A DNA stretch of 64,000 nt from Planctomycetota bacterium (GTDB lineage: Bacteria; Planctomycetota; JAJSAM01; JAJVHW01): contig CBDFJG010000004.1 of assembly GCA_965248445.1 (NCBI GenBank), positions 448,001 through 512,000 on the forward strand, given 5' to 3'. The notes under the pieces are model-generated. The model was not told the DNA's origin, made no database searches, and saw nothing but the letters and a program-made list of their open reading frames with translations. Shown piece by piece: positions 8,778 through 20,365 of this stretch. Each line of letters begins with the position of its first letter. Position 1 is the first letter of the stretch. Position numbers and translations under genes: made by a program.

Positions 8778-8890
8778 AGGGGGTACGTCGTGTTGGAGCG
8801 GACGACCCCCACCCGGGGGGACCCATCTCGCGCAGGCTGTGCCGGCTGAACCGAAACGGAGATCCGAAAAATCGAAAACCGAGGATCGCG

Positions 8891-9535
8891 ATGCCGGTGA
8901 GCAAGCCGGGCGGCCGGTGGGAGTGGACCCGTGGCGAGGACGAGATTGTCCAGGCGCTGCGGGTTGCGGGCGTGTCTGCGGACCGTACAGCGGATGCGAT
9001 TGGGTGCGAGCCGCGGTCACTGATTGCGCGGTACGGGGACGTGTTCGGTGCGCCGCGGACGGAGACGCACGAGCGGGCATTCACGGAGAACGAGGTGAAG
9101 ACGGCGGTCGAGATGAAGGCGCACGGGATCGCGGAGCGTCACATCGCGAAGGTGCTGGAGACGTCGATCACGACGTTGCGGAAGCACCTCGGGGACAAGC
9201 TGGCGGTGGCGGAGGCGAACTTGGTGCACGAGGTCGCGCGCGCGCTGGCCGTGAAGGCGAAGAAGGGCGACACGAAGGCGATGATGTTCTTCCTGGAGAA
9301 GCGCGGCGGTGCTGCGTGGCGGGACCGTACGCACGTGGTGCACGAGGGCGTCGGTGTGCTGGTGCCGCCCGGGATGCTGACGGCGGACGCGTGGATTGCG
9401 TCGCACAGCCCGACGGCGCTCGAGGGCGGCGGTGCACGGCCGATTCTCGACGTGGAGCCGGACGCTGTCCGCGACGGGGAGGATGCGCCAGAGGAGGTGG
9501 CGCGCCTCCCCCGCCGGGAAGTCGACGCTGCGTGA
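8891..9535 (+). CDS. terS: Terminase small subunit (HTH)
   Basis: HTH IAKVLETSITTLRKH, GDTKAMMFFLEKRGG..W motif, directly upstream of and overlapping TerL. Confidence 0.75.
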   Translation: MPVSKPGGRWEWTRGEDEIVQALRVAGVSADRTADAIGCEPRSLIARYGDVFGAPRTETHERAFTENEVKTAVEMKAHGIAERHIAKVLETSITTLRKHLGDKLAVAEANLVHEVARALAVKAKKGDTKAMMFFLEKRGGAAWRDRTHVVHEGVGVLVPPGMLTADAWIASHSPTALEGGGARPILDVEPDAVRDGEDAPEEVARLPRREVDAA

Positions 9536-12135
9536 GCACGGCGGCTCTTCCGGGCGTGGGTGTGGACGAGCAGCGCGAGCTCGAGGACGGTGTGCGTGCC
9601 GCGCGTGCTTCGGAGTTGTCGCGTGCGTCGAGGTCGGTGAACGGCGCGAAGGTGATCTGGGCGCCGTTGCCCGGTAGCCAGGAAGCGTTCCTGCAGTGCC
9701 CGCTGTTCGAGGTCCTGTACCACGGGAGCCGGGGCGGCGGGAAGACGGACTGCCTGCTGATGTCGTACGCGCAGCACGTCGGACGCGGGCATGGGCCGGC
9801 GTGGCGCGGGATCTTGTTCCGTCAGTCGCACCCGCAGCTGGCGGACGTGATCGCGAAGTCGCAGGAGTGGTTTCCGCGGATCTTCCCCGGTGCGCACTTC
9901 AACATGAGCCGCACGGAGTGGAAGTTCCCCGACGGCGAGATGCTGCTGTTCCGGCACATCGCGCAGCCGGCGGACTACTGGTGCGTGCCGGACGGCGACG
10001 TCCTGACCGAGCGCGGCTGGGCGCCGATCGAGGACGTGCGTGTCGGCGAGCGGGCGCTCACATGCGACCTCGAGACGATGCGCGTCGAGCTGCTTCCGGT
10101 CCGGGAACGGCCGGCCTTCGACTACGACGGTGACATCGTCGAGTACGAGGGCCGCGGACGGTTCATGTCGTTCACGCCGAACCATCGGCTCGTGACCGCC
10201 GATCGAGAGCTCGTCCCGTACTGCGAACTGCCGCGCGAGGCGTCGATCTGCCGTGGCGGGTGGTCCGTGCAGCGCGAGGGGATCGAGTCGTTCGATATCC
10301 CGGCCGTCGAGACGCGGATCCCGTGCGGACAGCCGACGTCGATGAGCGGCGACGACTACTGCGAGTTCATGGGCTGGTATCTCGCAGAGGGGTCGACCGT
10401 CAAGACGCCCGATCGCACCGGCAGGCTGTCGAACATCATCAGCATCGCGCAGAAGAAGACGGACCGCCGCGCGAAGATCGCCGCACTGCTGGATCGGGTT
10501 GGGATCGGCCACAGGGCGACGGACACACAGTTCGTCTGGTCTTCGAAGCGCTGGGCGACCTGGCTCCGGGAGTACGGTGGGTTCCAGCAGAAGTTCATCC
10601 CGCGCAACATCATCGAGTCCGCGAGCGCCGCGCAACTTCGGCAGTTCCTCGACGCGTTCATCGACGGAGACGGGACGCGCCAGGGCGATCGCCTATACGC
10701 GTTCACGTCGTCGCCGGGACTGCGCGACGGAATCTGCGAGGTCGGTGTCCTGCTCGGGTACGCGCCTCACGTGCTCGTGCGCCATCGTGACGAACGCCAG
10801 GTCTCGTACCAGATCTCCCTGAACCCACGATCGAGCCATCGCCTCTACACCGACAACCGCGAGCGGAACATCCGCGAGAACAGCGCGAAGACGCAGGTGA
10901 CCCGTCGTCACCACAAGGGTCGCGTGTACTGCCTGAGCTTCGCGCGGAACCACACGTTCTTCATCCGCCAACGCGGGTCGGTCTGGCTGTCGGGAAACTC
11001 GTATCACGGCCATGAGCTGCCGTGGATCGGGTTCGAGGAGCTGACGAACTGGAACACCGACGAGTGCTACACGCGGATGTTCTCTTGCAGCCGGTCGTCG
11101 CGGAGCGGCATGCCGCGGATGGTGCGGGCGACCACGAACCCGTACGGGGTGGGGACGAACTGGGTGCGGGACCGGTTCAAGCTCGCTGGCCAGTGGGACA
11201 AGGTCGTGGTGATCGAGAAGCCGCTCGGTCGCGGCGGGAAGCTGGAGCCGCCTCGAGCGGCGATCCACAGCCACCTGCGCGAGAACACGGTGCTGATGGC
11301 GGCGGATCCGGACTACGAGCAGAAGATCCGCGCGTCGGCGACCAACGAGGCGATGGCGGAAGCGTGGCTCGACGGATCGTGGGACCTGGTGGCCGGCGGG
11401 ATGTTCGGGGACGTGTGGAACTCGCGCGTCAACGACGTGCCGGACTTCGACGTTCCGGAGTCGTGGCGGATCGATCGCGCGTTCGACTGGGGGTCGAGTG
11501 CGCCGTTCAGCGTGGGCTGGTACGCGGTCAGCGACGGTAGCGATCTGACGCTGCGCGATGACCGCGTGGTGTCGACCGTGCGCGGGGACCTGTTCCGGAT
11601 TCGGGAGTGGTACGGGTGGAACGGGTCGCCGAACAAGGGACTGATGATGCTCGCGGTCGAGATCGCCAAGGGGATCGTGGAGCGCGAGATCGCGTGGGGC
11701 TGGCGGAAAGACCGTCGGTGTCGCGTGAAGGCGGGGCCCGCGGACTCCTCGATCTTCTCGGTCGAGAACGGGATGAGCATCGCGATGGACATGGCGAAGC
11801 CGGTGCACATCGACGGCACGGTGTTCATGGGCATCGAGTGGCTGCGGGCCGACAAGCGGCCTGGCTCACGGAAGATGGGCTGGGAGATGGTGCGGAAGAT
11901 GATGGCGGCCGCGCGGAAACCTGCGCACGGCGGCCCGCGTGAGACGCCGGCGCTGTTCGTGGTCGGGAAGAAGAACCCGCAGTTCCTGCGCACGATGCTC
12001 GTGCTGCCGCGCGATGAGCGGGATCTCGACGACGTCGACACGAAGGCGGAAGACCATGTCGGAGACGAAGTGCGGTATCGCGTGCGTGCCGTCGGGACCG
12101 AGGTGACGTCAGGCACCACGGTGGGGATGTACTGA
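9532..12135 (+). CDS. terL: Terminase large subunit with intein
   Basis: Walker A GSRGGGKT, Walker B WIGFEE, RATTNP coupling motif, nuclease RAFDWGSS and EDHVGDEVRY; GTG 9532 overlaps terS stop. Confidence 0.95.
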   Translation: MSTAALPGVGVDEQRELEDGVRAARASELSRASRSVNGAKVIWAPLPGSQEAFLQCPLFEVLYHGSRGGGKTDCLLMSYAQHVGRGHGPAWRGILFRQSHPQLADVIAKSQEWFPRIFPGAHFNMSRTEWKFPDGEMLLFRHIAQPADYWCVPDGDVLTERGWAPIEDVRVGERALTCDLETMRVELLPVRERPAFDYDGDIVEYEGRGRFMSFTPNHRLVTADRELVPYCELPREASICRGGWSVQREGIESFDIPAVETRIPCGQPTSMSGDDYCEFMGWYLAEGSTVKTPDRTGRLSNIISIAQKKTDRRAKIAALLDRVGIGHRATDTQFVWSSKRWATWLREYGGFQQKFIPRNIIESASAAQLRQFLDAFIDGDGTRQGDRLYAFTSSPGLRDGICEVGVLLGYAPHVLVRHRDERQVSYQISLNPRSSHRLYTDNRERNIRENSAKTQVTRRHHKGRVYCLSFARNHTFFIRQRGSVWLSGNSYHGHELPWIGFEELTNWNTDECYTRMFSCSRSSRSGMPRMVRATTNPYGVGTNWVRDRFKLAGQWDKVVVIEKPLGRGGKLEPPRAAIHSHLRENTVLMAADPDYEQKIRASATNEAMAEAWLDGSWDLVAGGMFGDVWNSRVNDVPDFDVPESWRIDRAFDWGSSAPFSVGWYAVSDGSDLTLRDDRVVSTVRGDLFRIREWYGWNGSPNKGLMMLAVEIAKGIVEREIAWGWRKDRRCRVKAGPADSSIFSVENGMSIAMDMAKPVHIDGTVFMGIEWLRADKRPGSRKMGWEMVRKMMAAARKPAHGGPRETPALFVVGKKNPQFLRTMLVLPRDERDLDDVDTKAEDHVGDEVRYRVRAVGTEVTSGTTVGMY
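9982..10998 (+). mobile_element. Intein with LAGLIDADG homing endonuclease (339 aa)
   Basis: Starts CVPDGDVLTERGW, block B TPNH, EFMGWYLAEG and FLDAFIDGDG motifs, block F VYCLSF, ends SGN followed by Ser+1. Confidence 0.93.
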
Positions 12136-16070: not shown

Positions 16071-17308
16071 CCACCACCGCCATCCCGCCCATCGACACCG
16101 ACGCGCCGACCGCGTCCGACCAGTGGACCGACGCGAACGTGCGCCACGTGATCGGGTTGCTGATGGTGTCAGACGGTCTGCGCGAGCGGCTGTGGAGGAC
16201 GCTGGACGCCACCGAGCCAGAACTGCGTCACGAGATCCTGGACCGGCTGCGACGCGTGCGCGGCCTGCAGTCGGCGTCGGACGTGCGCCGTGTGAAGCGC
16301 CTCATCGAGCGCCTGCGCGCGATCCGATCGCGGGCCTGGGAGGACGTGTCGAAGCACTGGCGAGAGCAGGCTGTCGACGTCGCGCTCAGCGAGCCTGGCA
16401 CGGTGGCTCGGATGCTGCGCACCGTGTTGCCGGTTGCGGTCGTGCTCGCCCTCCCCGCGCGGGCAGCGCTGCGAGGTCTGGTCGGTTCTGGCGAGATCCG
16501 TGGCCGCACGCTCGCCGCGTGGATTCGTGACCTGCGTGCCGCAGACCTCAAGCGCATCGAGGACCAGATCCGGATCGCCGTGTCCGCCGGCGAACCGTCG
16601 GAGGTCGCGGCCCGCCGTGTCGTCGGAACGACCCGCGCGCGCGGGATCGACGGTGCAACGCAGACGACTCGCAGGCATGTCGGCGGGCTGGTGCACACCA
16701 GCGTGATCTTCGTCAGCCAGGCCGCGCGATCGTTGTTCTTCGGCGAGAACAAGGCGCTGCTGCTGCAGGAGTTGTACGTCGCCGTACTCGACGGCCGCAC
16801 GACACCGATCTGTCGGAGCCTCAGCGGCAACGTGTACGCGATCGGCGTCGGTCCGCATCCACCGGTGCACTTCCGATGCCGTTCACATCGCGTCCCGTTC
16901 CTGAACGGCGACGCGATGACCAGCGTGCCCACCAAGCCGTTCACGGAGCAATTGCTGCTGGGCGAGTTCGCGGCCCAGCAGGGCTTCACGGCACGCCCGA
17001 GGTCGCGCGCTGCGATCCCGCGCGGGTTCCGGGGCAAGTACGACGCGTTTCGGCGCCGGCGGATCCGCGAGCTCGTCGGGACAGCAAGCGCCGAACTGTC
17101 CTACGCGGAGTTCCTGCGCCGGCAGTCGGCTGCGTTTCAGGACGAGGTCCTCGGCAAGGCGCGCGGGAAGCTCTTCCGGTCCGGCGAACTCGAGCTCCGG
17201 AAGTTCGTCAACGCGCGCGGACGGCAGATTCCGCTCAGCGATCTGGCGCGGTTCCACGCCGACGCGTTCCGGGCGGCGGGCCTCGACCCGTCGGAGTTCA
17301 CGATATGA
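16067..17308 (+). CDS. Minor head protein, MuF/SPP1 gp7 family
   Basis: AVLDGRTTPICRSL, PPVHFRCRS, QDEVLGKARGKLF. Confidence 0.9.
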   Translation: MTTTAIPPIDTDAPTASDQWTDANVRHVIGLLMVSDGLRERLWRTLDATEPELRHEILDRLRRVRGLQSASDVRRVKRLIERLRAIRSRAWEDVSKHWREQAVDVALSEPGTVARMLRTVLPVAVVLALPARAALRGLVGSGEIRGRTLAAWIRDLRAADLKRIEDQIRIAVSAGEPSEVAARRVVGTTRARGIDGATQTTRRHVGGLVHTSVIFVSQAARSLFFGENKALLLQELYVAVLDGRTTPICRSLSGNVYAIGVGPHPPVHFRCRSHRVPFLNGDAMTSVPTKPFTEQLLLGEFAAQQGFTARPRSRAAIPRGFRGKYDAFRRRRIRELVGTASAELSYAEFLRRQSAAFQDEVLGKARGKLFRSGELELRKFVNARGRQIPLSDLARFHADAFRAAGLDPSEFTI

Positions 17309-17529
17309 AGGTCGACATGGACCGGGCTCTCCTGTGCGGCTGCTCGGTAGCCCTGACGGGCGACGGCCGCACCGGCGGTAGCGTCACCTTCGAGTGGTGC
17401 CCGAAGCACGACGCGCTGCACGGGAGCCCACTCTGCGACTGCGCGGTTTGTCAGGCGAAGGACCGAGGCGAGGACACTGAGACCCTGCGCATCCTGCACG
17501 CGACGCGGGCCATCTACGATCACCAGTGA
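17305..17529 (+). CDS. Small Cys-rich hypothetical protein
   Basis: ATG overlaps MuF stop; CGC, CPKH, CDCAVC. Confidence 0.5.
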   Translation: MKVDMDRALLCGCSVALTGDGRTGGSVTFEWCPKHDALHGSPLCDCAVCQAKDRGEDTETLRILHATRAIYDHQ

Positions 17530-17595
17530 CCGGCATGTGCCGGTCGAAGACCGAGAGCGAGCATGGCTCGCAGAAGGAGATAGGGCATGGCCCTA
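17528..17595 (+). promoter_or_regulatory. Three tandem AUG-capped hairpins in the scaffold leader, the third enclosing the start codon
   Basis: GACCGGC-ATGT-GCCGGTC, GCGAGC-ATG-GCTCGC, TAGGGC-ATG-GCCCTA. Confidence 0.65.
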
Positions 17596-18414
17596 CGACA
17601 CGTCTACGAGAAACAGGAAGACATCCCCGAGCAGTACGCGGAGTTGTTCGCCGAGAAGAACGGCCAGTGGGAGCTGACCGGGATTACCGGGATGAAGACC
17701 CAGGCCGACGTCGCGCGGGTGCAGGAGGGGCTGAAGAAAGAGCGCCGCGCACACGGGGCGACGAAGGAAGCGCTCGAGAGCTACACGGAGCTCGGTGAAC
17801 TCGAGGATTTGCAGAAGACGCTCGACAGGATCCCGACACTCGAAGCCGCCTCCAAGGGGAAGCTCGACGACAACGCGATTCAGGAGGCGGTCGATCGTCG
17901 ACTGGAAGGCGAGATGCGCACACGCATCGCGCCCGTCGAGAGAGAACTCGCCGCGGTCAAGAAGAAGAACGGCGAACTCGAGTCCGAGAACCAGGAGCTC
18001 AACAAGGACAAGATCCAACGCAAGCTCTGGGACGTCCTGGACCCGCACCTCGCGGACGCGAAGGTCCGCCTCGAGCACATCGAGGACGCGCGCATGTACG
18101 CGGACAAGCACTTCGAGTTGACCGACGACGGCAAGTTCGTCACCCGGGACCAGGTCGGCGTCACTCCGGGGGTCGACGCGAAGATCTGGCTCGAGGAGAT
18201 GGTCGCGAAGAAGCCGGGCTGGGTCCCCCCATCGCAGGGCGGAGGCGCTGCCGGCAGCGGGAACACCGGTCTGGGCGGCGAGAACCCATGGTCCCCGAAG
18301 ACGTGGGACATGACCGCGCAGGGCAAGTACCTCCTGGCGCACGGTCCCGAGAAGGCGGCCCGGATGGCCGCCGCCGCGGGGACCACCGTCGGAGGGACGC
18401 CCGCGGCCGCATGA
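17587..18414 (+). CDS. Head scaffolding protein
   Basis: RBS AAGGAG; coiled coil; C-terminal SQGGGAAG...NPWS..TWDMTAQG typical of scaffolds; directly before capsid. Confidence 0.85.
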   Translation: MALRHVYEKQEDIPEQYAELFAEKNGQWELTGITGMKTQADVARVQEGLKKERRAHGATKEALESYTELGELEDLQKTLDRIPTLEAASKGKLDDNAIQEAVDRRLEGEMRTRIAPVERELAAVKKKNGELESENQELNKDKIQRKLWDVLDPHLADAKVRLEHIEDARMYADKHFELTDDGKFVTRDQVGVTPGVDAKIWLEEMVAKKPGWVPPSQGGGAAGSGNTGLGGENPWSPKTWDMTAQGKYLLAHGPEKAARMAAAAGTTVGGTPAAA

Positions 18415-18478
18415 GCCCCCCCGGGGGCTCGGTGCTGCGGCAGCGAGCCCCCATCCTCAGCCCGTGACCTACTACGGG

Positions 18479-18506
18479 TTGCGCGTGTCTTGCAATGTGA
18501 TACACT
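18479..18506 (+). promoter_or_regulatory. Sigma70-type promoter for capsid operon
   Basis: TTGCGC-16 bp-TACACT with extended TGn. Confidence 0.55.
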
Positions 18507-18512
18507 CCGTAC

Positions 18513-18662
18513 GTGGCCGAGGCGCATGGCGTTCTCGACCACTCCCGCTCGCTGCAGGGACGAAGTCGCCCATGGGGTTTGACTCCGAAGTTGCAGCGCC
18601 AAGTGGGCCGGCCATGGCGTGCGGCTCGTAGCCGAATCGTCACTCCAACCTCTTTCGGAGGT
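18513..18662 (+). promoter_or_regulatory. Structured capsid 5' leader with three C-AUG-G capped hairpins and an RBS-sequestering hairpin
   Basis: Hairpins 18513-18542, 18561-18587, 18605-18627; AACCTC-TTTCG-GAGGTT pairs the GGAGG RBS. Confidence 0.6.
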
Positions 18663-18667
18663 TCCCC

Positions 18668-19771
18668 ATGGCCGCAGGTCCGCTCACCCAGGTCACCGAC
18701 ATCGTCGTCCCGGCGATCTTCACTCCGTACGTCCAACAGCGGACCGAGGAGAAGTCACGCATCGTGCAAAGCGGTGCGCTGGTCCGTTCACCGCTGCTCG
18801 ACCAGAAGCTCGCGGGCGGCGGAGTCACGTTCAACATGCCGTCGATGCGCGACCTCGACAACGACGCGGACAACGTGTCGGCCGACAACGCGCCGGACAT
18901 CGTGGCGCTGTCGGTGTCGGGCGGTTCCCCCGCGCTGCCGGCGTCGTTCAACGACGCAGTCCCGAAGAAGATCCAGACGGCGACCGAGATCGCTGTTCGT
19001 CTCTCGCGCAACCAGGCGTGGTCGAGCGCGGACCTCGCGGCCGCTCTCGCTGGCATCGATCCGATGTCGGCTATCGCCGAGCTCGTCTCGGGCTACTGGT
19101 CGCGCCGTCTGCAGGCGTGCTTCATCGCGGCGATGCAGGGCGTCTGCAAGGACAACTCCGCGAACGACGCCGAAGACTACGCGCACGACGTCGCGGGCGC
19201 CTCGTACGTGAAGGGCACGACGGACTTCAGCGCGGAGGCGGTGCTCGACGCGATGGTCACGATGGGTGACTCCATGGGCGGCCTCGTCGCGGTCATGGTG
19301 CACTCGATCGTGTTCAACACGATGCAGAAGAACAACCTGATCGACTTCATTCCGGACGCTCGCGGCGAGACCGAAATCGCGACGTTCCTGGGCCGTGAGG
19401 TCATCATCGACGACGGCATCCCGAGCGGAACGAGCGCCCTGCGTGGCGACGGCACCGCCGGAGCCGCCGGCATCTACGAGTCGTGGCTGTTCGGCGCTGG
19501 CACAGTGCAGCTGGGCGTCTCGACTCCGAAGGTCGCGACCGAGGTCCAGCGCTACGCGGCCGCCGCCAACGGCGCGGGCGTCGAGGCGTTGCACAACCGG
19601 AACGAATGGTGCATCCACCCGACCGGCCACGCGTACACGGGCACGCCCGCGGACGGCGGACCGGGCAACGGCACCGGCTCCAACGACCTGAACAACGCGG
19701 GTTCGTGGAACCGCGTCTACCCGGAGCGCAAGCAGATCAAGTTCGCGCGTTTGGTAACGCGGGAAAGCTGA
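18668..19771 (+). CDS. Major capsid protein
   Basis: TDIVVPAIFTPYV, SRIVQSGA, DPMSAIA...YWSRR, MVHSIV, GREVIIDD, SWNRVY.ERKQI. Confidence 0.92.
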   Translation: MAAGPLTQVTDIVVPAIFTPYVQQRTEEKSRIVQSGALVRSPLLDQKLAGGGVTFNMPSMRDLDNDADNVSADNAPDIVALSVSGGSPALPASFNDAVPKKIQTATEIAVRLSRNQAWSSADLAAALAGIDPMSAIAELVSGYWSRRLQACFIAAMQGVCKDNSANDAEDYAHDVAGASYVKGTTDFSAEAVLDAMVTMGDSMGGLVAVMVHSIVFNTMQKNNLIDFIPDARGETEIATFLGREVIIDDGIPSGTSALRGDGTAGAAGIYESWLFGAGTVQLGVSTPKVATEVQRYAAAANGAGVEALHNRNEWCIHPTGHAYTGTPADGGPGNGTGSNDLNNAGSWNRVYPERKQIKFARLVTRES

Positions 19772-19777
19772 AACCGC

Positions 19778-20365
19778 GTGAGAACGGAACAGGTCTGCGA
19801 GGCGTGCTCCGAAGTGAAGCCGATCGACGAGTTCTACGGCGTCGGCATCACTCGGACGCGTCCTCGGGCTCGCTGCAGTGAGTGCTACGCCGACCCGCTG
19901 TCACCGGCAGGTCGAGCGACGCGCTCCGCGTACATGAAGAAGTACATGAAGGACAACAAGGAGCGGCTGGACGCGCAGCGCGCCGACTACCGGCTGCGCA
20001 CTCGCGATCAACGTCGGGCGCACCACCGCGAGTGGCACGCCAAGTTTCCGCACAAGAAGATGCTCAACCTGGCAAAGGCGCGCGCGAAAAAGAGGGGCCT
20101 CGAGTTCACGATCACCGAGGACGACATCCTGCCGTTCCCGGACACATGTCCGGTGCTCGGCATTCCGTTGCGCAAGGGCGCCTACAGCGGTGACCCCAAC
20201 GTGCGGAGCCTGGATCGAATCGACAACTCGAGGGGCTACGTGCCCGGGAACGTCGCGGTCATCAGCCGTCGCGCCAACGTGTTGAAGCGTGACGCGACGC
20301 TCGACGAACTGCGCAAGTTGGTGGCCTGGCTGGAGAGCCGCACGCAGAAGGGAACCATCCGATGA
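19778..20365 (+). CDS. Free-standing HNH-type endonuclease
   Basis: N-terminal CxxC zinc finger; CPVLGIPL...SLDRIDNSRGYVPGNVAVISRRANVLK. Confidence 0.85.
   Translation: MRTEQVCEACSEVKPIDEFYGVGITRTRPRARCSECYADPLSPAGRATRSAYMKKYMKDNKERLDAQRADYRLRTRDQRRAHHREWHAKFPHKKMLNLAKARAKKRGLEFTITEDDILPFPDTCPVLGIPLRKGAYSGDPNVRSLDRIDNSRGYVPGNVAVISRRANVLKRDATLDELRKLVAWLESRTQKGTIR

Follow-up and report, generated by a model that had tools for sequence, protein, structure and literature searches.

Why should short RNA hairpins with an AUG at their tip accumulate upstream of two head genes of a prophage, those for scaffold and capsid? We addressed this question for a 64,000-nucleotide stretch of a Planctomycetota genome (contig CBDFJG010000004.1, positions 448,001 to 512,000; the whole stretch is called the window, and positions are counted from its first nucleotide), in which a model working from the sequence alone had noted six such hairpins and proposed that a phage protein binds their start-codon-like loops to set the scaffold:coat ratio (the original prediction). 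The hairpins are real and occur far above chance level, and they form a conserved RNA element of Queuovirinae/JL001-like phages. We consider it likely that the N-terminus of the head scaffolding protein binds the loops, represses its own translation in the manner of phage P22 and also controls the capsid mRNA.

All six hairpins are present in the sequence (Table 1), and five of them fold as originally drawn. The sixth, the proximal one of the capsid leader, has a good outer stem and an apex that is weak when folded alone, and in the fold of the whole leader its predicted partner is the capsid start codon. In the scaffold leader the distal hairpin overlaps the stop codon of a small upstream open reading frame (ORF), and the proximal one ends 3 nt short of the Shine-Dalgarno (SD) sequence. 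Under a strict definition (C-AUG(N)-G loop, at least five contiguous pairs) the 5.4 Mb host genome contains 392 hairpins, corresponding to 0.036 per kb and strand, and the 64 kb window has four on its plus strand, all of them within the two leaders (expected 0.012, Poisson P ~1e-9). Strict hairpins no more than 60 nt apart form four pairs in the whole genome, two of which are in the scaffold leader of the window. The claim that the hairpins are confined to the leaders thus holds for strict stems, but not for stems of four pairs, for which 5 of 11 plus-strand matches lie in the leaders. Similarly, the capsid ribosome binding site had been described as locked in a UUCG-type hairpin: the SD does lie inside a hairpin, but the loop is UUC closed by U-G rather than the canonical cUUCGg. 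Table 1 gives the number of homologues whose SD lies in a local hairpin with a folding energy of at most -5 kcal/mol.

Homologous leaders were collected from 204 loci, 125 of which had both genes and unique leaders; 108 of these remained at <85% scaffold identity and, together with 10 cultured phages, gave a set of 118. AUG-loop hairpins were detected in 76/118 scaffold leaders and in 76/118 capsid leaders, compared with 3 and 6 in shuffles, 3 and 2 on the reverse strand and 4 and 4 in coding sequence, respectively, and they were rare before other head genes (2 of 66 portal and 4 of 63 muF leaders). The hairpins are hence enriched in homologous leaders and rare in controls, and their loops stand at fixed positions relative to the two start codons (medians in Table 1). 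A long scaffold-capsid spacer is absent from phages that are further removed but have related capsids (SETP3, 83-24, 3/49 and BL3). Tandem hairpins with GUG/AGG/AUG-like tips precede the distant scaffold genes of SETP3 (L217) and BL3 (L220), and on the basis of these leaders the element may extend past the Queuovirinae/JL001-like clade.

Variable stems around a constant loop had been read as a sign of an element acting at the RNA level, and covariation next to the loop, the prevalence of G-U over A-C and the enrichment in both leaders support this reading. For the proximal capsid site, pairs were counted on one specified structure in a set selected by motif and position. Of its 114 candidate rows 84 were used; visual inspection removed the other 30 because their start, spacing or motif was doubtful. 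Just beneath the closing pair, the next two pairs are maintained in 79/82 and 75/82 rows with 25 and 23 double changes, respectively, a score reached by none of 500 shuffles, showing that these pairs covary. RNAalifold gave no consensus structure for this hairpin because varying bulges shift the register, and the scaffold-leader alignment (67 rows) was selected by a hairpin detector, so that it is biased towards pairing. Should the hairpins be inverted repeats in DNA, acting as operators or cruciforms for a late-gene regulator, their position directly behind a promoter-like site would be accounted for; however, across homologues the arms have pairing in common and not sequence, the loop is strand-specific, G-U combinations outnumber A-C (86 versus 39 in 196 stems) and there is no enrichment before portal or muF, which makes DNA sites very improbable.

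The idea that the loops mimic start codons had to be abandoned. Whole phages switch to ACG, GUA or AGG, loop AUGs have no frame bias (55/40/42 and 23/34/39) and an SD-like word stands upstream of only 15 of 233. Together with the ACG loops of eight phages, the absent frame bias and the few SD-like words also rule out control by a leader peptide or upstream ORF. All four loops read ACG in 9g and in Seurat, the loops of L004 are GUA, and AGG or GUGA is found in one clade. The loops of one phage switch together (9g, Seurat, Vid5, L064 and others), and this simultaneous change of all copies suggests that their reader is encoded by the phage and changed along with the loops. Avoidance of CATG is a weak explanation for the origin of ACG loops, as 104 copies were observed versus 139 expected in 36.7 kb of 9g.

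A reader from the host, be it a CsrA/RsmA-like RNA-binding protein or the ribosome using the loops for standby or as decoy starts, would be compatible with the occurrence of both AUG and GUG, which are start codons, and with a tandem layout like that of CsrA targets. Yet the loops contain no GGA, in agreement with the original statement that they are not ANGGA loops of the CsrA type (the most common ones, including the closing pair, are CAUGG, CAUGGG, CAUGAG and AAUGGU), and the ACG, GUA and AGG variants, the frame counts and the scarcity of SD-like words speak against it as well. Moreover, loop type differs among phages of one host genus, two Klebsiella phages being a case in point, which argues against a host-encoded binder, and we give this explanation hardly any credence.

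The binder had been sought among scaffold, capsid and a small neighbor. It is most likely a phage protein, and the evidence favors the scaffold N-terminus over the capsid protein and the small neighbor. In a scan of scaffold columns, positions 41 and 37 rank first (p 1.8e-8 and 1.4e-6, uncorrected for kinship). All eight ACG-loop phages have N/S41 and none has K/R37, while 98 of 100 AUG-loop phages are without N/S41 (20 of the 128 rows of this comparison, including the N41 loci L033, L040, L066 and L191, were unlabelled). A prediction set beforehand was examined in new loci: 26 D41 loci gave 49 AUG versus 2 ACG sites, and four of five non-redundant N/S41 loci, read by eye, had ACG loops (L312, Vid5, STP-SP5 and Ec1-ASingh/K9PH25C2). 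Two of these, STP-SP5 and K9PH25C2, are closely related to Seurat and 9g, and L312 was located through a protein-coding pattern alone. Nine further non-redundant D41 loci, also read by eye, had AUG/GUG loops or none. Scans for further N41 scaffolds and relatives yielded one new N41 locus, L312, and N41 was found in none of 120 homologous proteins. A quick scaffold tree from which residues 1-47 were omitted joins L186 (ACG) and L005 (AUG) as sisters with a support of 99, and K4PH164 (AUG, K37/D41) is nested in the Vid5-Seurat ACG clade, again with a support of 99.

This covariation of residues and loops suggests that the scaffold N-terminus is the probable loop reader. K37 and D41, located at the start of a long helix, would read the second loop base, K/D going with U, and Q, G, A or V at position 37 with N or S at position 41 going with C. 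The chemistry would fit, Lys/Asp complementing the U edge and Gln/Asn the C edge. Fold searches with a model of the scaffold gave nothing clear, and its N-terminal domain folded alone reached a predicted local distance difference test score (pLDDT) of 56. Apart from these positions, a well-supported clade (L006, L027, L043, L051, L082, L098 and kin) combines the loss of scaffold R44 with relaxed loops (AGGG, GUGAU, AUGG); GUG/AGG versus AUG sites number 35 versus 44 without R/K44 and 31 versus 189 in the remaining loci, mostly reflecting one event.

In phage P22 free scaffolding protein (gp8) lowers its own synthesis post-transcriptionally, an autoregulation known since the 1980s. A related scheme can be proposed for the element described here, in which each site, a short stem of free sequence with an AUG(N) cap mostly closed by C-G, would be a repeated binding site for the phage's own scaffold. 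Free scaffold would bind two to three loops spaced by ~24 nt, beside and over its own ribosome binding site, and block its own translation; since the sites of the scaffold leader adjoin the SD and cover the start codon, binding should repress. Coat protein would then draw scaffold into procapsids, lifting repression in a P22-like feedback. As the capsid leader has two to three copies of the same site and its own promoter-like site, free scaffold would control capsid synthesis, too.

A sigma-70-like site occurs in the scaffold-capsid spacer of 75/118 loci, whereas shuffled spacers gave 10.6 and the reverse strand 3. The site of the window would place the start of the capsid transcript near 18513; a stricter consensus promoter scan did not report the site at 18479-18506. 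A search for RNA-seq data yielded only small-share wastewater contigs for an NP1-like locus. In 26/62 loci the distance from the -10 box to the first loop of the capsid leader is 13, 15 or 16 nt, so that the first hairpin would begin the capsid mRNA. In L205 (7300-7350) and in NP1-like loci a long inverted repeat links the -10 box with this hairpin, and read-through and internal transcripts would therefore fold differently. In L007, L009, L151, L153, L210 and L211 the first AUG-loop hairpin has a U run behind it and looks terminator-like directly past the promoter. Transcript fate could thus be the main output of scaffold binding, by protection of the 5' end or by attenuation just past the internal promoter, which would suit both a hairpin that begins the transcript and the U run (at least four) behind the distal capsid hairpin in 11/69 loci. 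However, there is no such run in 58/69, the window among them, and the scaffold-leader hairpins adjoin the SD and contain the start codon in 23/118 loci, so we rate an effect mainly on transcript fate as quite improbable.

We return to translational control by the scaffold, whose sign at the capsid gene would most likely be positive, because the last site is ~55 nt upstream and thus too far away for a ribosome block. In the window 18610-18617 can pair with 18666-18673 across the capsid start codon, a fold predicted to be 7 kcal/mol better than the open-loop fold, and a helix of this kind across the start codon appears in the predictions for 46/113 leaders, being weak in ACG phages. When the proximal capsid loop was held open, predicted start-codon accessibility rose by more than 0.3 in 28/113 leaders and fell by that much in none. 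This predicted start-codon-sequestering fold suggests activation: scaffold that holds the loop open would free the start codon from the alternative helix. The full version of the model, in which the scaffold is a sequence-specific RNA regulator that uses two residues as a code (K37/D41 for U and Q37/N41 for C at the second loop base), represses itself and activates capsid translation via the trapped hairpin, is put forward tentatively, as possible rather than probable; if true, free scaffold would be a sensor of the head-assembly ratio with natural orthogonal variants.

A number of observations weigh against the scaffold as reader and regulator. AUG-loop hairpins were undetected in 42/118 leaders of each kind, and the locus-specific complementarity of the helix over the capsid start was not significant (p=0.054). 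The N-terminal 60 residues of the scaffold are not basic overall, with a mean net charge of -2.2. T38-x-x-D41 presumably is a helix capping box as well, the predicted helix starting at residue 39, and for this reason the effect of D41 may be indirect. GUA, AGG and GUGA loops occur with K37/D41 intact, the four unlabelled N41 loci show no clear hairpins, and AUG loops are found in L011 (S41, divergent motif) and in PSTCR4 (N41, V37), the exception among the new N/S41 loci. The best tree, a quick one, requires six changes, and the independent pairs on starred branches are only three, all concordant (sign test p=0.25). Fewer ACG loci were available in the other scans than for the scaffold (portal 2, muF 2, capsid 4). 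In favor of the scaffold, though as an analogy only, pentatricopeptide repeat (PPR) proteins recognize U with D, C with S and either base with N (PMC3420917), resembling the shift in U versus C preference between D and N/S at scaffold residue 41; a PPR-like N that reads either base would accommodate PSTCR4, too.

There is a competing explanation in which another phage protein (capsid, portal or the product of a distant gene) binds the loops like an MS2 operator and the scaffold residues covary by linkage or chance. Concerted loop change within a phage is expected for any phage-encoded binder, the independent events are few, and portal D132E is present in both testable ACG loci (p=0.002). On the other hand, no capsid column is comparable to scaffold 41/37, the best one splitting off just 2 of 4 ACG phages, 9g, Seurat and Vid5 carry hairpins although muF is missing between their portal and scaffold genes, nothing in 204 loci besides the window itself matches the small ORF 17305-17529, and the scaffold signal was upheld in new loci. 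Hence, a binder other than the scaffold appears unlikely, though less so than any of the other alternatives.

Calling the element a new translational control system, as in the original prediction, is too strong, since P22 scaffold autoregulation and GP20 motifs before scaffold genes were already known. As in P22, the regulated gene is a head scaffold upstream of the coat gene, but the scaffold family here is phrog_206, the RNA site is defined and repeated, it is also present before the capsid gene, and a pairing of residue and base is suggested. Our literature search turned up no RNA site or binding surface for P22 scaffold autoregulation; for this type of control the element would supply an RNA site, a candidate protein surface and a natural specificity swap, and its ACG/AUG variants exist in culturable E. 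coli and Pseudomonas phages (9g, Seurat, NP1).

Known translational operators include those of MS2/R17 coat protein and of T4 RegA/gp32, where a virion-assembly or phage protein binds a hairpin at a translation start, and the scaffold start codon likewise lies in a hairpin; here, however, the sites are repeated, belong to two genes of dsDNA phages and have the AUG in the loop. CsrA/RsmA sites and pseudo-triloops of the iron-responsive element (IRE) type also offer hairpins in tandem whose apex is fixed while the stem sequence is free, and C-AUG-G-N may be depicted as a triloop plus an additional base, placed either within the closing pair or beyond it. In contrast to both, the loops lack GGA and the binder, judging from the sequences, appears to be phage-encoded.

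No Rfam family matched the leaders in window positions 17200-18800 or in 14 phage loci. GP20-b (RF03003, threshold 36.2 bits) gave no match at E<=10 in the same sequences, while phiCD111 as positive control scored 53.4 bits; GP20-a (RF02991, threshold 47.2 bits), for which no positive control was scored, had no match in the window, the 14 phage loci or NP1. The GP20-b match lies at L329:1212-1270 upstream of the annotated phiCD111 scaffolding gene and ties this Rfam motif to a scaffold gene. GP20-b also has two hairpins with similar loops, but these are large with UAAAA words instead of AUG(N). A further point of comparison is that GP20 leaders are structured and located directly before PF06810 (Phage_scaffold) genes; PF06810 did not match the window scaffold, matched 4 of 15 homologues weakly (best E 1.7e-4) and is noted in the 9g annotation. 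The available part of PMC10690425 lists six further candidate RNAs upstream of Phage_GP20 genes, treats the function of the GP20 gene as unknown and mentions no binder, and one of its 8,495 candidates may cover the AUG-loop motif; the main text of PMC5737381 does not mention GP20. The literature searched, which excluded the supplement of PMC5737381 and the alignments of PMC10690425, contained no description of the AUG-loop motif. The element is a conserved, probably cis-regulatory RNA, undescribed in that literature, that resembles P22 scaffold autoregulation and lies outside the GP20-b family. Scaffold binding would hint at what the orphan GP20 RNA motifs do and would bring the capsid gene under scaffold control. 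In synthetic biology, a small protein-hairpin pair that comes in orthogonal variants could be of use.

Table 1. Features of the scaffold-capsid region; AUG positions are relative to the start codon of the gene downstream.
Feature	Position in window	Strand	Remarks
Scaffold-leader distal hairpin, loop AUGU, C-G closing	17528..17545	+	AUG at -52; homologue median -51
Scaffold-leader proximal hairpin, C-AUG-G	17557..17571	+	AUG at -24; homologue median -28
Scaffold-gene SD	17574..17579	+	from sequence
Hairpin with scaffold start codon as loop	17581..17595	+	arrangement also in 23/118 homologues
Head scaffolding protein (phrog_206, E 1.7e-33)	17587..18414	+	proposed binder; K37/D41 at start of predicted helix 39-67
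Sigma-70-like internal promoter, putative, for capsid gene	18479..18506	+	-35 at 18479, 16-nt spacer, -10 at 18501 preceded by TG
Capsid-leader hairpin 1, bulged stem, C-AUG-G apex	18513..18542	+	at inferred 5' end of capsid mRNA
Capsid-leader hairpin 2	18564..18584	+	AUG at -96; homologue median -94
Capsid-leader proximal hairpin	18605..18627	+	AUG at -54; homologue median -55; alternative pairing over start codon
Hairpin holding capsid SD (18657-18661)	18647..18663	+	from folding; similar in 33/109 homologues
Major capsid protein (phrog_247)	18668..19771	+	62% identity to PhiJL001 coat

The hairpin locus belongs to a prophage in a host genome of 5.4 Mb in four contigs. Phage genes extend from ~8.9 to 46 kb of the window with host-type genes on both sides, the phrog_206 scaffold gene sits upstream of the phrog_247 coat gene, and the closest cultured relatives are PhiJL001, NP1-like and Vibrio phages and the Queuovirinae 9g and Seurat. 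No integrase was found among the ORFs tested and no tRNA in the prophage region, the flanks share only a 13-bp repeat (8465 and 46527), and the prophage may be incomplete. The large terminase subunit (8839-12135, 1098 amino acids) contains a LAGLIDADG-like insertion, probably an intein, and a second copy on contig C3 (153081-155384) is 100% identical across 768 amino acids, representing either a duplicate fragment or an assembly split. An HNH-type endonuclease gene (19778-20365) is inserted immediately 3' of the capsid gene. In the enterobacterial/Vibrio loci L204, L207, L210, L211, L215, L319 and L322 scaffold and capsid alike have N-terminal extensions, which often end near an Arg-x-Gly word and resemble cleavable propeptides.

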